DNA of 58,642 nucleotides from an uncultured Candidatus Bathyarchaeia archaeon (GTDB lineage: Archaea; Thermoproteota; Bathyarchaeia; Bathyarchaeales; Bathycorpusculaceae), in contig CAZUHG010000001.1 of NCBI GenBank assembly GCA_964620515.1, positions 1 to 58,642 of the forward strand. Direction: 5' to 3'. Below the pieces are notes generated by a model that did not search any database, had not been told where the DNA came from, and saw nothing but the letters and a program-made list of their open reading frames with translations. Numbering within the stretch: the first letter of the stretch is position 1; each line of letters begins with the position of its first letter. Positions 2,819-43,716 of this stretch are shown here, in pieces. A program made the position numbers and the translations under genes.

Positions 2819-2866
2819 CGTTTCAACCTTTATAAAAGGGAGGGGGGTAGTCACCGCAGAGCACAG
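2819..2866 (-). promoter_or_regulatory. C-rich + TATA promoter-like module (shared with 43431..43476)
   Basis: The minus strand reads ..CTCTGCGGTGACTACCCCCCTCCCTTTTATAAAGGTTGAAACG. It is about 80% identical by eye to the module upstream of the radical SAM gene at 43354. It lies about 190 nt upstream of rpl12. Confidence 0.35.
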
Positions 2867-2876
2867 AAGGCTTAAA

Positions 2877-3728
2877 CTATTTTCTGAAGCTTACAGCAGC
2901 GTATCCAACCACGCTGGAATAGTCGCCAGTTACATCTCCACTGCTCTTATAACAAAGCAGTTTCGCTTCTTTTGCGCCTAACCCTTTCGCAGCAGCAATC
3001 ACCGAGGCTATTGGACCATAACCGCAGGCGGTTACGTTTTGCTTTTCAATAACGGAGTAGAACCGCTTTTCATCCATAGCTTCCACAGCTTTAAGCGTTG
3101 CCAAGTCTTTTGCAGCTGCGTTTCCCTGTGGCTCGTAATGAGTCATGTCCGATGACGCTATAACCACCGCGTTTCTGCTGGCTAAAGCTTCGACCAAAGC
3201 CTTTCCAACTTCCACAGCAGACAATAAATCCTGCAGCTGGAAACATATTGGCACGAACCTGAACTCAGAGCCATAAAGGTATTGCAGAAAAGGCAGCTGA
3301 ACCTCAATTGAATGTTCAAAACGGTGCGCAAGCTCATCCACATCTACAAGACTTGTTTCCTGCATTATACGGTTAGCTGTTTCCCCATCAATTTCCACGT
3401 CACCCAGAGGTGTACGCCAAAATCCTTCATTCATCAACGCCAAAGCGCTGCCATAACCAGTGTGGTTTGGTCCCAGAATTACAACTGTATCTGGCTTTCC
3501 ATCTGAAGCTAATTCATAATAGGCGTTGGCTGCCACGGGACCAGAATATTCATAACCTGCATGGGGACAAACGAGACCAAGTATTTCTCTTGACCCGTTT
3601 TTATTGACTTTTGGATGCTTTTTTGGACCAAGCTCATGGAGGAAACAGTTTTCAATCTGCGCCTTTAGTGATTCGGCGTTTCCTTCGTAGAAGGTTCCCG
3701 CAACACGTGGATGCCGAATCTTCGCCAT
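2877..3728 (-). CDS. MEMO1-family protein (AmmeMemoRadiSam system protein B-like)
   Basis: MAKIRHPRVAGTFYEGNAESL..., CPHAGYEYSGPVAA, ILGPNHTG, HSIEVQLPFLQ and SSDMTHY. An internal ATG at 3728 avoids overlap with rps2. Confidence 0.85.
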   Translation of the reverse strand: MAKIRHPRVAGTFYEGNAESLKAQIENCFLHELGPKKHPKVNKNGSREILGLVCPHAGYEYSGPVAANAYYELASDGKPDTVVILGPNHTGYGSALALMNEGFWRTPLGDVEIDGETANRIMQETSLVDVDELAHRFEHSIEVQLPFLQYLYGSEFRFVPICFQLQDLLSAVEVGKALVEALASRNAVVIASSDMTHYEPQGNAAAKDLATLKAVEAMDEKRFYSVIEKQNVTACGYGPIASVIAAAKGLGAKEAKLLCYKSSGDVTGDYSSVVGYAAVSFRK

Positions 3729-3732
3729 CGGT

Positions 3733-4422
3733 TTAGTCTTCCTCTTCGTCATCCCTTGAGAGTTTGGCTTCAAAATTTTCAATTGTCGCTGCTGGGTCTT
3801 TGTCGGCTGCTAGTTCGCCTCTTTCGCGGAGGATTTGTCTTGCCAATAGCCAGAATATCACAGCTAATGCGCGTCTGCCCTTGTTGTTTGTTGGAATAAC
3901 CAAGTCTACTCCAGCGAACTCGTTGTCAGTGCTGCATAACGCTACTATCGGTATTCCTGCTTTAGCGGCTTCTTTGACGGCTTGAGCGTCTGCTCGTGGG
4001 TCGGAAACAATTATCACTTCAGGGTCGATGCGGCTTGAATATTGAGGATTTGATAAGAGCCCTGGGATGAATCGACCTATTATGGGTGTAGTGCCTGTTA
4101 TCTCGCAGAATTTCTGCGCTGGTTCGTGTGCATAAAGTCTGCTTGTTGCTACTGCTATTTTTGCGGGTTCGAAGCGTGCCAAGAATTTTGCGGCGATTCT
4201 TATGCGTTCATCAGTTTTTTTAACGTCTAAAACAAACAATCCGTCTGGTCTGACGCGGTATATGAAGGGTTCCATGTCGCTGGTTTTCATTCTTGTTCCA
4301 ATGTGTATTCCCGCTGACAACAATGTGTCACGCGGTAACAAGAGTTCCTCTGTTGGTGGTGTTTCCTGTTCCTTTTCTGGTTCAGTTTCTGATGGGGTTT
4401 CTTTAATTTCATCTTCTGCCAT
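3733..4422 (-). CDS. rps2: 30S ribosomal protein S2 (uS2)
   Basis: LLSAGIHIGTRMKTSDMEPFIYRVRPDGLFVLDVKKTDERIRIAAKFL...VSDPRADAQAVKEA..GIPIVALCSTDN. It has an acidic N-terminal extension and an acidic C-terminal tail. Confidence 0.93.
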   Translation of the reverse strand: MAEDEIKETPSETEPEKEQETPPTEELLLPRDTLLSAGIHIGTRMKTSDMEPFIYRVRPDGLFVLDVKKTDERIRIAAKFLARFEPAKIAVATSRLYAHEPAQKFCEITGTTPIIGRFIPGLLSNPQYSSRIDPEVIIVSDPRADAQAVKEAAKAGIPIVALCSTDNEFAGVDLVIPTNNKGRRALAVIFWLLARQILRERGELAADKDPAATIENFEAKLSRDDEEED

Positions 4423-4434
4423 TTTCTTTTCTCC

Positions 4435-5688
4435 TTAATGTGTTTTTAAATTAGCCATTTTGGCTTTATTTCCTAAGAAATGTTCAATTCTTACTAACTC
4501 GTTTATTTTCGCGATACGTGCGCCTTCCACAATTCCAGTTTTTATTATTGGGCATTTAAACGCTACAGCCAAGTGGGCTATGTGCCAATCACATGTGTCG
4601 CCGGAACGATGTGACATTACCGTGGTGTATCCGTGTCTTTGGGCGTTTTCGATTGTTTCCGCTGCGTCTGTGAGCGTGCCGATCTGGTTGACTTTAATTA
4701 TAATCGCGTTCGCCGCATCAAGTGCTATTCCCTGGTTTAATCGTTCGGTGCTGGTTGTGAACAAGTCGTCACCGCAAATCAAACAGTTCTTAGCTTTCTT
4801 GGTGAGTTCAGCAAAGCTTTCAAAGTCTTCCTCATGGAAGGGATCTTCCACGTAAGCAAGATGGTACTTTTCAATCAGGTCTAAAAGATAATCGAGCTGC
4901 TTGGCGGTATCGCGTTTTTTATCTTCACTCGCGTAAATGTACTTCTTTTCTTTTTCATTCCATAACGAGGATGCAGCAACATCAATGCCGAAATCGCACT
5001 CAAAATCTAACTCGTTGCCTACTTCTTCACACGCTTTGGCTATGACTTCGAAAGCGTCTATGTTTCCAATGTGAGCAATCCATGCTCCTTCGGAGCTTTT
5101 TCCGCCGTTGAAGAGTTTCTCTTTCTTCTTCAGGATTTCGCCTATTTTTTTGTGGATTTGAGCGTTTGCTGTCGCGGCTTCTAGAAATGTTTCAGCGCCA
5201 TGGGGAAGCGCCAAGAATTCTTGGATGTCTGGAGCTTTTCCACGAGCGTGCTGTCCTCCACTTATAGAGTTTCCAAGCGGGTACGGAAGCGTGTTAGCGT
5301 TGTTTCCGCCTAGGAACTGGAATAGTAGGAGGCTGTGAGAGTTTGCCGCTGCTTCCGCGTTGGCTAGCGAAATTGCAAAAGCGGTGTTTCCGCCTATAAC
5401 CTTAAAGTTTGCTGTGCCATCAATCTCATGAAGCGTGCTGTCAATTTCCTCTTGAAAATCAGAGTTTAAACCAGCAATTTCAGGCGCTATCAACTCATCA
5501 ATCTTTTTCAACGCTTGATCTACACCACCTTGCGGATAATAGAGCACTTCAGCTTTACCGCGACTTTTCCCCGACGGAGCAGAAGCTCTTCCGAAACCAG
5601 AAGTTGTCACGACATCAACTTCTATAGTTTCTTCCCCACGACTGTTGAATACCTTTCTGGCGATGAGATCTTCAATGATTGACGACAC
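4435..5688 (-). CDS. eno: enolase (phosphopyruvate hydratase)
   Basis: 417-aa ORF with FNSRGEETIEVDV, GASAPSGKSRG, DVAASS, IKVNQIGTLTD and SHRSGDT. The start codon is GTG, preceded by GAGGT. Confidence 0.95.
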   Translation of the reverse strand: MSSIIEDLIARKVFNSRGEETIEVDVVTTSGFGRASAPSGKSRGKAEVLYYPQGGVDQALKKIDELIAPEIAGLNSDFQEEIDSTLHEIDGTANFKVIGGNTAFAISLANAEAAANSHSLLLFQFLGGNNANTLPYPLGNSISGGQHARGKAPDIQEFLALPHGAETFLEAATANAQIHKKIGEILKKKEKLFNGGKSSEGAWIAHIGNIDAFEVIAKACEEVGNELDFECDFGIDVAASSLWNEKEKKYIYASEDKKRDTAKQLDYLLDLIEKYHLAYVEDPFHEEDFESFAELTKKAKNCLICGDDLFTTSTERLNQGIALDAANAIIIKVNQIGTLTDAAETIENAQRHGYTTVMSHRSGDTCDWHIAHLAVAFKCPIIKTGIVEGARIAKINELVRIEHFLGNKAKMANLKTH

Positions 5689-5775
5689 GCCGTTTACCTC
5701 AAGCGCTATAACTTTTGTTTAGCTCTTATTTACTCTTTCGGAAAAGAGCAGCGCTAATCTTATGCGTGGAAAAAA

Positions 5776-5797
5776 CTATACCCACCTTATTTAAAGG
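5776..5797 (+). promoter_or_regulatory. C-rich + TATA-like box preceding repeat copy A
   Basis: CTATACCCACCTTATTTAAAGG, similar to CTATAGCCCCCTATTTAAAG at 19292..19311. Confidence 0.3.
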
Positions 5798-5817: not shown

Positions 5818-5925
5818 GCGTTTTCAACATGTTATTGGTTGCGGGAAACGCCAATAGTGACCTCCCCTCTATAGGTTTCTGCATGCTATTTCTATTAGGA
5901 TCCAAATAGGCGGCAAATAGGTTTG
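5818..5925 (+). repeat. 108-bp intergenic element, diverged copy A
   Basis: By eye it aligns to 19313..19420. The shared core is TTGGTTGCGG.AA..CGCCAATAGTG..CTCCCC...TCTGCATG.TATTTCT.TTAGG..GGCGGCAA, with one 8-9 nt insertion. Confidence 0.7.
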
Positions 5926-6017
5926 TCAAGATTTCTTGACTAAGGTTTAAGCGGGTTAGTCAAGAAAGTTTGACTAAAAAACTGTGGTTCCGGCCTGTTT
6001 AGTCAAGAAACCTTGAC
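5925..6017. promoter_or_regulatory. three tandem 16-bp palindromic operator-like sites, GTCAAG-N4-CTTGAC
   Basis: GTCAAGATTTCTTGAC at 5925-5940, GTCAAGAAAGTTTGAC at 5959-5974 (one mismatch) and GTCAAGAAACCTTGAC at 6002-6017. Start-to-start spacing is 34 and 43 bp. The last site ends 38 bp before the ATG at 6055. Confidence 0.6.
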
Positions 6018-6054
6018 AAAAACGCTTTAATCACGGAAACAGCCTGAATATTTA

Positions 6055-19128: not shown

Positions 19129-19291
19129 TGGGGTAACCTCTTCAGTTAAAGGGTCGTAGAGTTGCAAAATTAAAAGTTTATGTATTCTTCTTCACTTTTC
19201 CATCGAAAACTTGGGCTTAAACAGAAAAACTGTGGCATATCGAGTTTTCAAGTGTGGCTGGAACCTGCGTGAACTGATGCGCGATTTTTGT

Positions 19292-19311
19292 CTATAGCCC
19301 CCTATTTAAAG
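19292..19311 (+). promoter_or_regulatory. C-rich + TATA-like box preceding repeat copy B
   Basis: CTATAGCCCCCTATTTAAAG, immediately 5' of the 108-bp element. Confidence 0.3.
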
Positions 19312-19312
19312 C

Positions 19313-19420
19313 GCCTGTTTTCATCATGCTTTTGGTTGCGGAAAGCGCCAATAGTGGTCTCCCCTTATGGGTCTCTGCATGTTATTTCTGTTAGGCGGCA
19401 ATTATGATGGGTTTGGCGTT
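19313..19420 (+). repeat. 108-bp intergenic element, copy B
   Basis: It matches the reverse complement of 43477..43584 with a single mismatch (G at 19406 versus the partner base at 43491), by manual alignment. Identity ends abruptly at both ends. Confidence 0.9.
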
Positions 19421-31929: not shown

Positions 31930-32102
31930 CCCAAAATTAAAGCACTATGATAGTCACTACGCGCAACGTTAACCACGCTTGATGTCTGTTCTAAGACTTG
32001 AACTAAAGAGAATGAAGCAAGTTTGAGTGATAACAAAGACATTTTTAACGCGGAAAGGCAAATATCACAAAAAAGGATAAGGGGATTTGGTGTTTGCAGG
32101 TT

Positions 32103-32912
32103 TTAGAGTGTGTAGTTTTTTGCTAAGCTGGTTTTTGGATGCTTCCGCAGCCAATAGACGCCAACAGCAACTGCAACAGATGATAGCAGCATAACAAACA
32201 CGATGCTAAAGCCCTCTGGATATGGGTCTTGGGAAAAAGTCGAGACTACTCCCCAAGTGTCTGGGACGTCTGCGCTGCCTGGTGCCCATGATCGCCATCC
32301 CGCTGCGGGGTTGCTCGCGTCGTAATATGCAATTCTAAATGCGTTTGGCGGCTGACCAACTACTAAAGTGCCTGTTTGCTTGTCGTTTATTTTGAATTCT
32401 GTGATCCAGTGGGGTGTGCTGTTCCATGGAGAAGCGCTTATCGAGTTAGCCCATGAGACTTCGCCTGCTGGCAGGGTGATTTCGCTCCAGCCTGTTCCAT
32501 TTCCTTGATACGCTTTCATTGTGGTGTGTCCAAGGATTTCTATCTTGAAATGGGCGGCCGCGGGAGCAGCGCCTCCGCTGTTGGCGGGGTCTAAGCAAAA
32601 TTGCCATATGTCTCCGGCGTCGTTGGTGTTGTCATCGAAAACTTCGGTAAGGAACAGCATAGCATAATTGGGAGAGACGGTGGTATCCATTTTGTATTTG
32701 CATCCAGCTGTGTAAGTGTTAGACATGTTCATCCTTGGGGCGTCGGTCCATTCGGCTGCAACAGTCCAATTTCCATCAACGGTGACGGTGGTGCTAGCCC
32801 AGTATTCTAGTATTGAGTAAGCTGAGTTGCCTGCCGTGGCTGTTCCTGCGGTTACTATCAGCATACTGCAAAGCAGAAGTATTGAAAAAGCAACATTTAC
32901 AATTTTCTTCAT
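32103..32912 (-). CDS. secreted surface protein (CBM9/DOMON-like N-terminal pattern) with a C-terminal TM anchor, paralog 1
   Basis: Signal peptide MKKIVNVAFSILLLCSMLIVTAGTATA, then TVDGNWTVAAEWTDAP. The C-terminus is PYPEGFSIVFVMLLSSVAVAVGVYWLRKHPK. Confidence 0.75.
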   Translation of the reverse strand: MKKIVNVAFSILLLCSMLIVTAGTATAGNSAYSILEYWASTTVTVDGNWTVAAEWTDAPRMNMSNTYTAGCKYKMDTTVSPNYAMLFLTEVFDDNTNDAGDIWQFCLDPANSGGAAPAAAHFKIEILGHTTMKAYQGNGTGWSEITLPAGEVSWANSISASPWNSTPHWITEFKINDKQTGTLVVGQPPNAFRIAYYDASNPAAGWRSWAPGSADVPDTWGVVSTFSQDPYPEGFSIVFVMLLSSVAVAVGVYWLRKHPKTSLAKNYTL

Positions 32913-33026
32913 TCTTCTTTAATCTCCTTTAAGGATTATACTTATTCTTCGCAGTGACCTTAAAAATTTTGCTATACGACAGCCCATGCGACACCTGATT
33001 GGAAAACCAAAATTTAATGCAAAAAC

Positions 33027-33062
33027 GTGAAAAGAACAAAAACGTTCCAACAATTGTACTAA
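33027..33062 (+). pseudogene. relic of the 5' end of the wHTH regulator gene, carried along by the tandem duplication
   Basis: GTGAAAAGAACAAAAACGTTCCAACAATTGTACTAA aligns with ATGATAAGAACAAAGCGTTCCAACAATTGGACTTATAAG at 34112 and stops after 11 codons. Confidence 0.45.
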
Positions 33063-33154
33063 AAAGAATAAAGTAAACTTGCGTGGTAACAGAGGCAAAC
33101 TTTGAAGCGGAAAGGCAAACATAAAAAAAGAGGGAGATTTGGCGCTTGCAGATT

Positions 33155-33949
33155 TCAGAGCGTGTTTTTTGCTAAACTGTAGCGTTCGGTTTTTGGGCGT
33201 TTCCGTAGCCAATAGAAGCCAACGGCAACCGCAACAGTTGACAGTAGCGCAACGAATACGATGTTAAAGGCTTCTGGCCATGGGTCTTGTGAATAAGTCG
33301 GAATTAATCCCCACTGATCTGGAACGTCCGCACTGCCTGGTGCCCACGCATGCCATGTAGCCTTGCTCGCGTCGTAAGCCGCAAGTCTCATACCAGTTGG
33401 TGGAGCATTGGCAACTGTTATTGAGCCGCCTGTCTTTACATCAGATATCTCTACAATCCAGTGAGGTGTGCTGTTCAATGGAGAGGCGCTTATCGAGTTA
33501 GCCCAAGACACTTCGCTCGGATCGGCGATTTCAGTCCAGCCTGCTCCATTTCCCTGATACGCTTTCAAGGTGGTGTGTCCTGTGATTTCTATTTTGAAAT
33601 CGCCGGCCTGAGGAGCAGTGCCTCCGCCGTTGCTATCGTCGAGGCAAATTTGCCATATGTCTCCGGCGTCGTTGGTGTTGTCATCGAAAACTTCGATTAT
33701 CCACTGGCAGGAAAATGTGTCATAATCCATCTTGTATTTGCCTACAGCAGTGGCTGACATGTTTATCTTGGGAGCGTCGGTCCATTCGTTTGCAGAGGTC
33801 CAGTTTCCATCAACGGTTGCTGGAGTGACAGCCCAATACTCCAGCACTGAGTAAGCTGCATTGCCTGCCATGGCGGTTTCTACGCTTACTAGCAATAGTG
33901 GACTGCATAATGCCAGTATACAGAAAGCCGCAAAAAGGATTTTCTTCAT
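33155..33949 (-). CDS. secreted surface protein (CBM9/DOMON-like N-terminal pattern) with a C-terminal TM anchor, paralog 2
   Basis: Signal peptide MKKILFAAFCILALCSPLLLVSVETAMA, then TVDGNWTSANEWTDAP. The C-terminus is PWPEAFNIVFVALLSTVAVAVGFYWLRKRPK. It is collinear with 32103..32912. Confidence 0.75.
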   Translation of the reverse strand: MKKILFAAFCILALCSPLLLVSVETAMAGNAAYSVLEYWAVTPATVDGNWTSANEWTDAPKINMSATAVGKYKMDYDTFSCQWIIEVFDDNTNDAGDIWQICLDDSNGGGTAPQAGDFKIEITGHTTLKAYQGNGAGWTEIADPSEVSWANSISASPLNSTPHWIVEISDVKTGGSITVANAPPTGMRLAAYDASKATWHAWAPGSADVPDQWGLIPTYSQDPWPEAFNIVFVALLSTVAVAVGFYWLRKRPKTERYSLAKNTL

Positions 33950-34111
33950 TCTTTTCTACTCTCCTTTAGTGGCTAACTTATTATTCGATTCAGTAGCTTA
34001 AAAAATTTTGCTATATAGCAGCCTATACAATGCCTGATTTACAATTTGAAAGAGAAATACGCGTATAAACTTGCATACACTTTAGAATTAAACCAGAATT
34101 TAACGCAAAAC

Positions 34112-34639
34112 ATGATAAGAACAAAGCGTTCCAACAATTGGACTTATAAGTTGTTGTTGGGCAGTATTATCTGTGAGGCGGCTTACTTATTGAACGCGGT
34201 CGATGAGACAAAGCTTGAATACTCCCTTCGCGGCAAAGCATGGAAAGTCTACTGGTTCCTGCTTAAAACTGGCAATCCTGTTAGCGTGCGAGAAGTCCAG
34301 CGTGCCTTGCGCTTCAGCAGCCCAAGCGTAGCGCACCACCATCTTGAACAGCTGCACGATTTGGGTTTGGTTGAGAAACAGGAAATCGGCGGACACTATA
34401 TACTAGTGGGCGAAGTGAAAATCGGCGTGCTCCGCCACTACGTGAAACTGGGCAAACTGCTGTTTCCAAGATACTTCTTCTACGCAGTTTTCTCCACCGT
34501 TTTCTACGCAGCTTACCTGCTTTTCCTAACACATGACTGGCTCATGCGTGAGAACCTGTTCATCGCCGTGTTCGGAGCCATAGTTTGCGCAGTTTTCTGG
34601 TATGAAGCGTACCGCGTGTGGACTATGCGACCGTTCTAA
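34112..34639 (+). CDS. membrane-associated winged-helix DNA-binding protein (wHTH followed by two C-terminal TM helices)
   Basis: KVYWFLLKTGNPVSVREVQRALRFSSPSVAHHHLEQLHDLGLVEK, then FPRYFFYAVFSTVFYAAYLLFL and LFIAVFGAIVCAVFWY. The ATG at 34112 is preferred because the track start at 34046 lies in duplicated non-coding flank. Confidence 0.65.
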   Translation: MIRTKRSNNWTYKLLLGSIICEAAYLLNAVDETKLEYSLRGKAWKVYWFLLKTGNPVSVREVQRALRFSSPSVAHHHLEQLHDLGLVEKQEIGGHYILVGEVKIGVLRHYVKLGKLLFPRYFFYAVFSTVFYAAYLLFLTHDWLMRENLFIAVFGAIVCAVFWYEAYRVWTMRPF

Positions 34640-39634: not shown

Positions 39635-41008
39635 TTATAGCTCTAAAATCGTGTTTATTTTTCGCATAACCCGCTTCATACTGCGCCGATTTATTTGGTT
39701 GTTTTCAATACCGTTCCATAACTGCAACATTAGCCCTTCTTTTAGGCAACTTCGCATTTCTTCTTCGGGAATGGGCAGTTTTAAAGGCAAATTTTTGTTT
39801 TCGGAAATAATGTTATGTCTCACTGCGATATCGTGAAGTTTAGAACCTATGATGGGGTTAGTAATAGACCAAGATATGTAAGTTACTAATTTATCCTTCA
39901 AAAGTTGTTTAATAGTGCTTAGAGTTTGGCACACTTCTGCAGTTGTTTCGTATTTCAGCGCTCCGTTTTCTTCCCAAGCGTTATACAACATAAAGAAGCC
40001 ATAGACCTTAATTTTATGTTTCTTCAGAATATTCAATGTGCGCATGGTGTCTTCGAACGTGATCATTTTGTTAATGCCTTTTAAAACCCTGTTGTTAACT
40101 GATTCTATGCCAATGTGCACGAGCCAGCAATTAATCGCTTTCAGCTCTTCAGCGAGTTTCTCAGTAACCTTATCTGCTCTAAGATTGCATTGGAAATATA
40201 AATCTTTCAAATTCAACTTTTCAATTTCTTCGCAGACAGAAACCGCCCAGTCAACATCGGCATTAAAGGTGTCGCATCTAATGTAAATCTCTCTAACACC
40301 CCTATCGTGTAGATACTTAACTTCTTCAGCAATGTTCTGAGGTGAACGCAATCTAACCCAAGGCTTCTTCAGCCTCCACACAGGAATGCTGCAGAAAGTA
40401 CAGGCGCAGGGGCAGCCTCTTGCCGGTAAAACGTAAGCAAAAGGATACTTCTTCCTAACAGGTCCATCGTATTTTGTGAAGTCTATTATGTCCCATGCAG
40501 GCAGAAAGTTTATGTCCTCAATCAACCTGCGCAGCTGATTGGAATGGATACTTCCCAACTTATCCTGATAGGCTATGCCCTCTACGCTAGATAGCTCCTT
40601 GTTTTCCTGAAGAGCTTTCAGAAGTTCTACAAACGTTTCTTCTCCTTCACCGATAACACAAATATCCGTTTCAGAATTAGCGAATACGTCGTTTGAATCA
40701 AAAGTTGGATGGGGTCCTCCAGCCACAACTAAAACACTAGGCAGCACTTGTTTAACGTGGTTTATCACTTCAAACGCCAATGCTTTTTTTGGTGTAGTAA
40801 AAGAAACCCCGTAAACGTCTGGTTTTAACCTTTTAATTTCAGCTAAATGCTGTTCTAGATTTAAAAATGGTTCTAAATAATGAAATTCAACGTTGGGCAC
40901 TCTGTTTCGTGCATAGGAAATCATGTATAAAATGCCAAGATTAGGTGACTCTGTCACGGCTTCGCCTTCCAAATGCGCCATCGGTACGTCAGCGAAGACA
41001 ACTTTCAC
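39635..41008 (-). CDS. B12-binding-domain radical SAM protein (class B), copy 1
   Basis: An N-terminal Rossmann-like B12-binding region (VLVVAGGPHPTF, DICVIGEGEETFVELL), a CxxxCxxC cluster (ARGCPCACTFCSIP) and an HIGIESVN motif. The start codon is GTG. Confidence 0.85.
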   Translation of the reverse strand: MKVVFADVPMAHLEGEAVTESPNLGILYMISYARNRVPNVEFHYLEPFLNLEQHLAEIKRLKPDVYGVSFTTPKKALAFEVINHVKQVLPSVLVVAGGPHPTFDSNDVFANSETDICVIGEGEETFVELLKALQENKELSSVEGIAYQDKLGSIHSNQLRRLIEDINFLPAWDIIDFTKYDGPVRKKYPFAYVLPARGCPCACTFCSIPVWRLKKPWVRLRSPQNIAEEVKYLHDRGVREIYIRCDTFNADVDWAVSVCEEIEKLNLKDLYFQCNLRADKVTEKLAEELKAINCWLVHIGIESVNNRVLKGINKMITFEDTMRTLNILKKHKIKVYGFFMLYNAWEENGALKYETTAEVCQTLSTIKQLLKDKLVTYISWSITNPIIGSKLHDIAVRHNIISENKNLPLKLPIPEEEMRSCLKEGLMLQLWNGIENNQINRRSMKRVMRKINTILEL

Positions 41009-41148: not shown

Positions 41149-41850
41149 TTACGTGTGTCCTGTGAAAGCCTCAAGCCTCAGCTGAGTTTGTGGCAACCCT
41201 AAGTCTTTGACGAGCTTTTCCATTGCCTGCACCATTGGAGGAGGACCGCACGCGTAGAACCCTCGTTCCTTGTAGTCAAGCACTTCTTTTTTCAACATTT
41301 CCGCGTTAATCACTCCTGTGGCGCCTTTCCAAGCGTTGCTGGCTTCGCTGAGTATGAAAACCACTTTGAGATTCTTGTTTTGCTTCTCCATCTCTTCCAG
41401 CTCTTTTTTGAAAACTATATCGCTTTCGCTTCGGTTGCCATAAAGCAAAGTAATCTTGGCAGTTAAGCGCATGTCTGTGCAGTACTTGCAAATGCTCCTA
41501 AACGGGGTTATCCCGATCCCTCCAGCAAGCAGGACTATTTTTTCGTTTTCGCCCTCAAAAGTGAACTTGCCATAAGGCGCGTCTATCGTTGCCCAATCGC
41601 CCACTTTAAATGTCCTTAAAGCGGTTGAGAATTCGCTGTCTGTGAGTTTTTTAGTGAACTCAATGTGCTCTTTTTCCGTCGGGCTACTGGATAAGCTGAA
41701 CGGTTTGGTCAGTGTCTTCCCGCTGGATTTTAGTGTTGCAAACAAATACTGTCCTGGTTTGTAGCTTAAGGTTGTTGGTCTTGGGAATCTAAAAGTTGTC
41801 ACGTTGTAGGTGTGCGGTATAATCTCCTTCACGTAAGTTTCGAACTTCAT
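41149..41850 (-). CDS. FNR-family FAD/NAD(P)-binding oxidoreductase (flavin reductase module, no Fe-S domain)
   Basis: YNVTTFRFPRP..YKPGQYLFATL, KPFSLSSSP (RxYS-like FAD motif), and VLLAGGIGITPFRS (NAD(P) motif), ending in ..LEAFTGHT. The ATG at 41850 is preferred; an alternative TTG is at 41874. Confidence 0.8.
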   Translation of the reverse strand: MKFETYVKEIIPHTYNVTTFRFPRPTTLSYKPGQYLFATLKSSGKTLTKPFSLSSSPTEKEHIEFTKKLTDSEFSTALRTFKVGDWATIDAPYGKFTFEGENEKIVLLAGGIGITPFRSICKYCTDMRLTAKITLLYGNRSESDIVFKKELEEMEKQNKNLKVVFILSEASNAWKGATGVINAEMLKKEVLDYKERGFYACGPPPMVQAMEKLVKDLGLPQTQLRLEAFTGHT

Positions 41851-41920
41851 AAAAATCTCTCTCTTTTCAGGCAAACTTCAGTTAGTGTTTTACGGGTACA
41901 TCTATAAAATTGTATCGTGG

Positions 41921-43354
41921 CTAGGCTACGCTGTTCGCTGCTTCCCTGATTTCGCCTAGTCGACTCAGATTGCTCACTAAGACATTCATCCGATACATGC
42001 TTTTCAAAGTTTGCACAGCCTGCTTCACTAAAAAGTTTGGGCGACAGACATGCTGATAAAAGGCGTTATGCATGATTTGCATTATTTCGTCACGGGCAAC
42101 CCTTGCATAAGGGTACACTTCAGAAACGGCAACGCCCTTCTCCCACAATTTCTCTGGGTCTATGAAGCCTTTAGCTACAAACTCGTTCCAAATGTCGTTG
42201 CCAGGGTGAGCGCCAAGTATGTTGAATTGCGGGAGGTCTATGGGAACCTGCTGAGCAAAATTTATTGTGTTCCAAATCTCCTCGCGAGTTTCATCTGGAG
42301 CGCCAACTATGAAAGACCCGGCGATAACATCCACTCCAGCTTTCTTGGCTGTTTTCACGGCGGTTTCTGACTGCTCAGGGGTAATTCTCTTGTTGTAGTA
42401 GTTTAGGATTCGCTGGTTGGCGCTTTCGATGCCTAAATAGAGGACTTTGCAGCCTGCCTGCACCATTTCACGCAGCATACCGTAGGAGCAAATGTCGACT
42501 CTTCCTTCACATATCCACTCTAAGTCAAGTTTCTCTTTTCTTATGCCTCTGCAGATTTCTATCACTCTTTTCGGGTTCATGGTGAAGGCGTCATCCACGA
42601 AAATGAGTTGCTTGTACCCTTCGCTGGCTAACAACTGCAGTTCCTCCACAGTGTTTTTGGCTGATCTTGGCCGCCACCTTTTTTTGGCAAGTTCCGTGCA
42701 GCTACAAAATCTGCAGCCGTAAACGCAGCCGCGAGAGGTGACGATGCTTGTGAACTTTTTTGGCGCGATGTTTGCTCCTGCAACTACGCAGTGATATTCT
42801 ACGTTGAGCAGTTTGCGGTCTGGAAAAGGCAGGGAATCTAAGTCCTGAATTAACTGCTGATCAGGCGTAGAGACCATTTTTCCTTCATTTCTGAAGTTGA
42901 TTCCCCGAATTTTCTTCAGGTCCTCTCCGTTTTTCAGGCAGTTTGCCAGTGCCACAACGGTTTTTTCGCCTTCGCCGCGGGCGACTATGTCAACGGAAGA
43001 GTATTTCCTAAGAATTCGCTCTGCGTTGAATGTAGCGTGATGGTTACCGAAAACTGTAGTGACCTCTGGGTTTTTCTCTTTCACTTTATTGCTTATCAGC
43101 CCCGCGGTCTGACCTGAACTAGTAAGCGTTGAGAAACCCAGCACGTCAGGGTTTTCTTTCTCCACCCAACGCACGGTTTCTTCCACCGTAAAGCCTAGCG
43201 CAGGCTGATCCAACACTGAAACTTCAACACCTATTTTCTTGAGGACCGCCGCTAAATACAAGATGTTTAAAGGTGGAAACGCGGCGATGGATTTTCTGCC
43301 TTCCCGTTCATCAATGCCTTCGTTGGGACTTGCGCTGATAAACGAGAACTTCAT
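41921..43354 (-). CDS. B12-binding-domain radical SAM protein (class B), copy 2
   Basis: An N-terminal B12-binding-like region (VTTVFGNHHATF, DIVARGEGEKTVVALA), a cluster motif SRGCVYGCRFCSCT, and LGIESANQ. Confidence 0.85.
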   Translation of the reverse strand: MKFSFISASPNEGIDEREGRKSIAAFPPLNILYLAAVLKKIGVEVSVLDQPALGFTVEETVRWVEKENPDVLGFSTLTSSGQTAGLISNKVKEKNPEVTTVFGNHHATFNAERILRKYSSVDIVARGEGEKTVVALANCLKNGEDLKKIRGINFRNEGKMVSTPDQQLIQDLDSLPFPDRKLLNVEYHCVVAGANIAPKKFTSIVTSRGCVYGCRFCSCTELAKKRWRPRSAKNTVEELQLLASEGYKQLIFVDDAFTMNPKRVIEICRGIRKEKLDLEWICEGRVDICSYGMLREMVQAGCKVLYLGIESANQRILNYYNKRITPEQSETAVKTAKKAGVDVIAGSFIVGAPDETREEIWNTINFAQQVPIDLPQFNILGAHPGNDIWNEFVAKGFIDPEKLWEKGVAVSEVYPYARVARDEIMQIMHNAFYQHVCRPNFLVKQAVQTLKSMYRMNVLVSNLSRLGEIREAANSVA

Positions 43355-43430: not shown

Positions 43431-43476
43431 CGTTTCAACCTATTTATAAGGGAGGGGGTGCTCTCGCAGAGAAGCA
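43431..43476 (-). promoter_or_regulatory. C-rich + TATA promoter-like module (shared with 2819..2866)
   Basis: The minus strand reads CTCTGCGAGAGCACCCCCTCCCTTATAAATAGGTTGAAACG, about 85-95 nt upstream of the radical SAM ATG at 43354. It directly abuts repeat copy C. Confidence 0.4.
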
Positions 43477-43584
43477 AACGCCAAACCCATAATAATTGCC
43501 GCCTAACAGAAATAACATGCAGAGACCCATAAGGGGAGACCACTATTGGCGCTTTCCGCAACCAAAAGCATGATGAAAACAGGC
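43477..43584 (-). repeat. 108-bp intergenic element, copy C (inverted relative to copy B)
   Basis: Its reverse complement equals 19313..19420 except for one base, by manual alignment. Confidence 0.9.
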
Positions 43585-43716
43585 ATTGGAAAGTTGAGGC
43601 CCAATTGCATACTTAATGGTATTAGGCTCCCGTAGAGCATGCTATTCTGTCCAGAGAATATTTATATTAGGCTTAATGATTTTACTGCAAGGAAAAACCG
43701 TAAGGAAACAGGCATC

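Follow-up and report, generated by a model that had tools for sequence, protein, structure and literature searches.

Background

Several described systems share features with the element reported here. REP/BIME, ERIC, SM of Sulfolobus and MJRE of Methanocaldococcus, the latter two classed as MITEs, are families of short repeated intergenic sequences that occur at many loci and serve as substrates for ectopic recombination. RNA-seq studies of Methanosarcina, Haloferax, Sulfolobus and the Thermococcales have listed archaeal intergenic small-RNA (sRNA) genes with a BRE/TATA promoter of their own. The box C/D and H/ACA guide sRNAs are encoded by many paralogous small genes, some of them in arrays, in which conserved boxes flank a variable segment. 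Finally, the genes of rRNAs, tRNAs and sRNAs may evolve in concert through gene conversion, so that a paralogue is far closer to a given copy than is the orthologue from the same locus.

Hardly any of the abundant Bathyarchaeia have been cultured, and our literature search found no paper on their non-coding RNAs or promoter types. Here we analyse a 108-bp element in a 58,642-nucleotide stretch of DNA from an uncultured Candidatus Bathyarchaeia archaeon (hereafter the window). The window is archaeal by content (ribosomal protein S19e, DUF7347), and the annotations of close relatives read Candidatus Bathyarchaeota or Bathyarchaeia. Like the REP/BIME-type families, the element is short, intergenic and repeated; it differs from them in occupying orthologous loci, in lacking terminal inverted repeats and target-site duplications, and in following a promoter-like block of fixed orientation. 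Like the archaeal intergenic sRNA genes, it is about 100 nt long, intergenic, non-coding, lineage-specific and preceded by a promoter-like box of its own. In contrast to these genes, the family is multi-copy, forms tandem pairs and has an unusually long conserved promoter cassette. With the guide sRNAs the element shares conserved boxes around a variable segment and many, partly tandem, paralogues; it has neither the pair of an RUGAUGA C box and a CUGA D box nor an ACA box, and its length and layout do not fit. The parallel to concerted evolution is close in one respect: one copy is 99% identical to a paralogue and about 73% identical to its orthologues. However, the tract is only 108 bp long, the two paralogues are inverted and 24 kb apart, and the 5′ junction is non-homologous, unlike in conversion of the rRNA type.

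We consider it highly probable (about 0.85) that the element belongs to a clade-specific, non-coding family linked to a promoter-like block, and that the near-identity of two of its copies arose by gene conversion at an ancestral locus. At present the element is a solid annotation lead and not a surprise.

Copies, distribution and anatomy of the family

Three copies were found in the window. Copy A (19313-19420, + strand; nhmmer E=1.6e-28 with the family profile) matches the reverse complement of copy B (43477-43584, - strand) at 107/108 positions in a pairwise count, in agreement with the first-pass annotation, which had described an inverted pair with a single mismatch. A repeat search of the window likewise returned 19313-19420 and 43477-43584 as arms of 108 nt, 99% complementary. 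The identity stops abruptly at both ends. The 24 kb between the two copies are ordinary chromosome, with tRNA synthetases and transporters, and contain no recombinase or transposase. The diverged third copy that had been proposed near position 5818 is also real. This copy C spans about 5818-5930 (+) and is of an "ATCCAAA" subtype. Its first 49 nt are 86% identical to the pair, and it can be aligned throughout with insertions of 1 nt and of 6 to 10 nt. It carries an internal duplication of about 10 nt near 5900-5921. It is orthologous to the second unit of a tandem pair in the related locus L002 (L002 741-948 versus window 5818-6033, 80% identity). Two search patterns, a core of 25 nt and a gapped one of 63 nt, matched exactly copies A, B and C in the window, where shuffled sequences predict no match.

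Beyond the window, a strict 24-mer matched two contigs of the GTDB representative MAG JAFGNM01, each with two head-to-tail units, and gave one chance match within a bacterial gene. The gapped pattern matched seven JGI metagenome contigs and no viral contig. A profile search of the fetched loci added copies 5′ of the S19e gene in L028 and L029-L033. Next to the enolase-S2-Memo genes, 17 related loci yielded no copy, the only signals being the two weak candidates in L011 and L012 described below. A profile of the longest open frame matched 40 called ORFs from metagenomes, which lie across further copies, several of them tandem. Taken together, the copies in the window (at least three in 58 kb), the MAG, the metagenomes and the S19e loci establish a multi-copy family, of which 14 distinct DNA copies were recovered with the related contigs and compared, A and B among them. 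As far as the sampling shows, the family is confined to a narrow clade of Bathyarchaeia.

The units are single or arranged in head-to-tail pairs. Their bodies are about 90-105 nt long and the paralogues are about 72-85% identical to one another. The aligned copies share five invariant blocks, TTGGTTG(C/T)GGAAA, CGCCAAT, CTATAGGTTTCTGCA, CTATTAGG and CCAAATATGCTGG. Between these blocks are a C-rich stretch that gains or loses single nucleotides from copy to copy, a hypervariable segment of 8-9 nt that differs in nearly every paralogue, and a variable 3-nt spot. Two weak candidate homologues (nhmmer E 0.02-0.25) were seen at orthologous positions in L011 (1886-1971, +) and L012 (18310-18248, -), just 5′ of the promoter of an ArgZ/saccharopine-dehydrogenase-like gene. 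Given these candidates, the strict searches may underestimate the age and divergence of the family.

A promoter-like block upstream of the copies

The DNA flanking the copies had been described as unrelated, with no other non-coding sequence duplicated at that level in the window. Both statements require correction, as a conserved promoter-like block (P-block) lies directly upstream of both copy A and copy C and recurs elsewhere in the window. Its consensus, TGTGCTCTGCGAGACTATAGCCCCCTTATATAAAG-ACTGAAGCATAGGTTGAAC, comprises a C-rich stretch, a TATA-like box and ..TTGAAC/TTTCAAC. The whole cassette is about 55 nt long, and more than 25 matches were found in L002-L027. The P-block of copy A (19275-19312, +; ..GTCTATAGCCCCCTATTTAAAGC) contains the C-rich stretch and the TATA-like box (E=3.9e-4 with the nhmmer profile), and that of copy C (..CTATACCCACCTTATTTAAAGG) lies at 5758-5797, + (E=1e-6). 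5′ of copy B there is a possible degenerate remnant, recognized by eye only. Two further P-blocks are not followed by an element in the window. One is a full block at 43439-43474 (-), which begins 3 nt past the 3′ end of copy B and is located 5′ of a B12-radical SAM gene (E=1.7e-4). The other, at 2827-2867 (-), lies directly past the Memo stop codon, and orthologous blocks are present in L002, L011, L013, L025 and L026; in L002 it precedes the two tandem units.

Most copies sit behind a P-block, always on the same strand: this is the case for copies A and C, L005/L009, L007, L008, L010 and the L002 pair. P-blocks also occur at many element-free places in these genomes, often 70-300 nt from the next ORF or facing a convergent gene. 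The one past Memo can fire only forward, since the opposite direction would be antisense to Memo. The TATA box is separated from the body by 5-8 nt in copy A, L007, L008 and L010, and by 20-26 nt in copy C, L004 and L005. The archaeal TATA box is usually centred near -26, a geometry that predicts a transcription start at or just before the body. Judged by consensus only, the P-block has the orientation and distance expected for the promoter of an independent small-RNA gene; the S19e-locus copies carry degenerate TATA boxes. The sequence preceding the TATA-like box is C-rich in the P-block, whereas it is purine-rich in the promoters of S19e, tRNA and gene 19601.

These data bear on the suggestion that the element acts in cis on the gene downstream, as a 5′ leader or riboswitch. 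A rule in the first-pass annotation had each copy co-oriented with a gene beginning 120-180 nt after it. The rule holds within the window, where all three copies point at such a gene, and breaks down in the relatives, where the next gene is convergent at five loci (L001, L006, L007, L008 and L029). Furthermore, TATA-like boxes intervene directly 5′ of genes 19601 and 43354, and a full P-block follows copy B. The genes downstream of the copies are unrelated to each other, and even where the window and L002 have both the element and the adjacent palindromes in common (see below), the downstream genes are different. There is also no Rfam match. The downstream genes' apparent TATA boxes of their own, together with the convergent neighbours in relatives, thus leave the leader reading unsupported, and we regard it as very improbable.

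Probable gene conversion at the copy B locus

In L028 and in L029-L033, a family member is found upstream of S19e in the same position and orientation as copy B. The flanking ribosomal-protein genes of these relatives are 86-88% identical to those of the window. Orthologues of B lie at L028 234-134 and L029 9876-9774, both on the - strand. The L028 and L029 copies are 84% identical to each other (92/109) and the S19e-locus copies form a distinct subtype, with bodies conserved despite their poor TATA boxes. Copy B matches these orthologues at only 79/108 and 80/109 positions (about 73%), in contrast to 107/108 for its paralogue A. In an alignment of the locus, the flanks of B on either side have orthologous sequence in L029, as has the 5′ flank in L028, and between them lies a body of the A type. 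The ancestral 5′ flank (43585-43640, -) can be aligned with L028 and L029 and not with A; by eye it contains the possible degenerate P-block with a poor TATA box (CCATTAAGTATG) mentioned above, where nhmmer reported none. The 5′ junction between flank and body is imprecise and non-homologous, with about 13 extra nucleotides.

The comparison of 73% identity to orthologues at its own site with 99% identity to paralogue A suggests that B was overwritten by A-type sequence. We infer that B is an old copy replaced through gene conversion or an equivalent templated patch, with A or an A-like copy as donor. Recent copying or gene conversion had both been proposed for the pair, and the ancestral status of the locus favours conversion. 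Therefore, the near-identity of A and B would represent concerted evolution, in which the S19e-upstream copy received an A-type sequence with an imprecise 5′ junction. If this is true, the two 108-bp paralogues, inverted and 24 kb apart, are a clean case of gene conversion. The genes to the left of the L029 copy, examined for signs of an A/B inversion, lack homologues in the window.

The same locus argues against a MITE-like miniature element recently inserted at 43477-43584. Such an element would be short, intergenic and multi-copy, as this one is, and the A/B identity ends abruptly; the ends of A and B also form an imperfect inverted repeat. However, the B site already holds a family member in L028 and L029-L033 and no empty site was seen. 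Judged by this orthologous occupancy, B is not a new insertion. Neither target-site duplications, of which the first-pass annotation had seen no obvious case, nor other flanking direct repeats occur at A, B or C. No transposase is encoded in the window between A and B, and viral contigs have no matches. As for the inverted repeat, pairing between the ends CAACAT and ATGCTG is seen in 75% of cells in the alignment, with the centre most commonly mismatched, and paired ends are absent in copy C, L010 and L001_1, so that no terminal inverted repeat is conserved across the family. A miniature mobile element, which had been among the initial candidates, is accordingly unsupported and very improbable.

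Coding potential

A further possibility is that the element encodes a peptide. A leaderless micro-ORF of about 26-30 aa would read M-L-L-V-A-E-N-A-N-S/T-D-L-P-P-I-G-F-C-xxx-L-L-G-S-K-Y, and could be a precursor peptide. The frame is open through IGFC in 8/14 DNA copies, and behind a full P-block the usual TATA spacing would place +1 at the A of a conserved CATG. The called ORFs have DLPPIGFCxxxLLGSKY in common. Part of the variation is purely silent (Leu CTC/CTA/CTG, Gly GGA/GGG/GGC, Ser TCC versus AGC), L029 and L028 differ by an in-frame 3-nt indel, and B12-radical SAM genes are nearby. On the other hand, 1-nt indels or premature stops interrupt the frame in 6/14 copies, including A and B, and the nucleotides downstream of these lesions are nevertheless conserved. 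The start codon is missing in L010 and in the whole S19e-locus subtype, and the stops range from codon 14 to beyond codon 57. The pN/pS ratio of 0.72 is not significant (column-shuffle p 0.26), the numbers of variable sites at the three codon positions are 11/10/11, and the reverse strand is likewise open across the core. The called ORFs have arbitrary N- and C-terminal extensions.

Broken frames, missing starts, scattered stops and the non-significant pN/pS led us to reject a micro-ORF as the main source of constraint, and a translated peptide is unlikely. The conservation is independent of frame, and the dominant constraint, as judged from these comparisons, is at the nucleotide level. The element is probably non-coding, and the 40 called ORFs over family copies appear to be spurious.

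A predicted small-RNA family and its DNA-level rival

The combination of a promoter-like block and non-coding constraint is what leads us to rank first, though tentatively and with less than even confidence, a lineage-specific family of small-RNA genes. A small-RNA family was also among the first proposals for this element; the BRE/TATA-like block and the non-coding constraint speak for it, while a fold, as detailed below, could not be demonstrated. Each unit would be a small-RNA gene behind a P-block, transcribed from the beginning of the body or from slightly before it. The predicted RNA would contain the invariant blocks UUGGUUGYGGAAA, CGCCAAU, CUAUAGGUUUCUGCA, CUAUUAGG and CCAAAUAUGCUGG, separated by the C-rich stretch of variable length and the hypervariable segment of 8-9 nt. 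Both transcription of the unit and action of its product at the RNA level are predicted here from sequence features. If the prediction holds, this is a lineage-specific small-RNA family without representation in Rfam, and its P-block would define an extended, highly conserved promoter cassette marking a distinct class of transcription unit.

In single-sequence folding of either strand, MFE z-scores were about 0, no better than shuffles, and the covariation term of RNAalifold was slightly unfavourable. The long hairpin proposed by RNAalifold (UGCGGAAA/UUUCUGCA plus AUAG/CUAU) was rejected: it shows no compensatory changes, 3/6 changes are disruptive, and variants derived from the called peptides (VVKS, SVFH and others) disrupt its 5′ strand. 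A second hairpin, GUGACCU/AGGUUUC, fits A and B, where four substitutions all keep G.U or G-C pairing, a hint of a + strand RNA, and was discarded as it fails in L028 and L029. Another such hint is a palindrome in copy C that retains its pairing via G.U. A helix formed by the element's ends had been noted as CAUCAU/AUGAUG. It is strong in A and B only; elsewhere the corresponding CAACAU/AUGCUG helix has a central A.C mismatch or is absent. The mismatch is repaired in A/B (U-A), L005 (G-C) and L008 (A-U), which also hints at a + strand RNA, yet in spite of such double changes it is the usual state, and the terminal helix was not retained as a candidate. In the two hand-built structures, 86-88% of cells pair, which is not above shuffles, with two-sided changes at 2 pairs only. 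Thus neither folding, RNAalifold nor the comparison of two hand-built structures with shuffles demonstrated a conserved secondary structure. No consistent oligo-T terminator follows the body. Further points against small-RNA genes are the S19e-locus bodies, conserved behind poor TATA boxes, and the C-rich sequence before the TATA-like box, where other genes here have a purine-rich BRE.

Comparison with known RNAs was uniformly negative, in agreement with the initial impression that the element bears no tRNA, C/D-box or other known ncRNA signature. With Rfam 15 at gathering thresholds there was no match anywhere in the window and none at the element in 10 related loci, and a relaxed scan of L006, L008 and L010 also found nothing on it. 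The best relaxed match on copy A was SNORA2, with 18.6 bits against a gathering threshold of 70 (E=0.45). ARAGORN and the Rfam tRNA model found no tRNA in the window and none at the element in related loci. No RUGAUGA is present on the + strand of the family consensus, AUGAUGA on the reverse strand occurs in A and B only, and CUGA or GUGA is found once, internally. The + strand of copy A has no ACA, and the SNORA2 match is far below threshold, so an H/ACA RNA is not indicated either.

The main rival to small-RNA genes is a DNA-level cassette derived from promoters, which we consider doubtful but worth serious attention. In this reading the body arose as an internal duplication of promoter-proximal sequence, has since diverged, and binds TBP/TFB or a transcription factor; it would work within a compound or bidirectional promoter region and not by way of an RNA. 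Several observations are consistent with this possibility. First, the body is similar to the P-block both at its centre (GTGACCTaCCCCCTATAGG, compared with GGTGACTACCCCC..TATAAAGG) and at its start (GGTTTCAACATGCTATTGG, compared with GGTTTCTGCA-N8-CTATTAGG); only L005 and L010 give a significant local alignment, and this internal-repeat signal is weak overall, as 3/5 copies score no better than shuffles. Second, primary sequence is conserved with little covariation, and the S19e-locus bodies have been kept although their TATA boxes are poor. Third, CCTATAGG within the body is a perfect palindrome. Fourth, at 9/13 loci the neighbouring gene is divergent and lies back-to-back with the unit, at times with the P-block 70-110 nt from its start (several loci). 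However, the second units of tandems have no TATA box of their own, and for several substitutions G.U pairing is preserved on just one of the strands.

GTCAAG-N4-CTTGAC palindromes, which often follow the copies, also agree with a DNA-level role. Three such 16-bp palindromes are located after copy C (5925-5940, 5959-5974 and 6002-6017, +), and they are conserved with L002 (about 843-940), where the downstream genes differ and the last palindrome abuts the downstream TATA box. A degenerate palindrome follows the L008 copy (L008 about 800-815), and peptide matches ending in ..YDGLSRN or ..YAGLPRN reveal the same element-palindrome junction in further copies. The palindromes are probably transcription-factor operators of the downstream promoter.

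To return to the small-RNA genes, a more specific and decidedly speculative version would have them encode scaffolded guide-like RNAs. The hypervariable segment of 8-9 nt would be presented on a scaffold consisting of UUGGUUGYGGAAA.., CUAUAGGUUUCUGCA, CUAUUAGG and CCAAAUAUGCUGG, in single or tandem precursors. These would be expressed from a promoter class with a C-rich BRE, perhaps recognized by an alternative TFB, and would program a Bathyarchaeial RNP to different nucleic-acid targets. We think this quite improbable.

Genomic neighbourhood and synteny breaks

The window and L029 are syntenic precisely as far as the 3′ edge of the element (blastn synteny from window position 43471). A second site of interest is the enolase / ribosomal protein S2 / Memo trio (window 2877-5688, -), which is intact in related genomes and has different neighbours in almost every one of them; the neighbours differ among the window, L011, L012, L014, L015, L025 and L026. 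In the window, the trio lies between a P-block and copy C, the latter with a P-block of its own. The end of the L029 synteny and the changed neighbours of the trio place P-blocks or copies at rearrangement breakpoints. As these lie beside conserved ribosomal-protein clusters, they may shape genome rearrangement in the clade.

Some other features of these loci were recorded as well. Two B12-binding radical SAM genes (39635-41008 and 41921-43354, both -) adjoin copy B, with a ferredoxin-reductase-like gene (41149-41874) between them. In L005, the first ~38 nt of tRNA-Thr and the 35 nt upstream of it occur a second time, 1.3 kb upstream of the complete gene (about 2745-2705 and 1450-1375, both -). 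The two tRNA-Thr copies bracket a wHTH ORF (2013-2621), an arrangement that looks like a small element integrated in a tRNA gene. Directly downstream of the tandem pair in L001, the segment 3045-4648 contains a DnaQ-like exonuclease ORF and a putative HNH-like ORF (motifs recognized by eye), which may be a mobile or viral remnant. Finally, the window contains a tandem duplication of about 1.05 kb at 32044-34150. Its paralogous ORFs (32103-32912 and 33155-33949, both -) have no Pfam match and are 77-92% identical, including their upstream non-coding parts.
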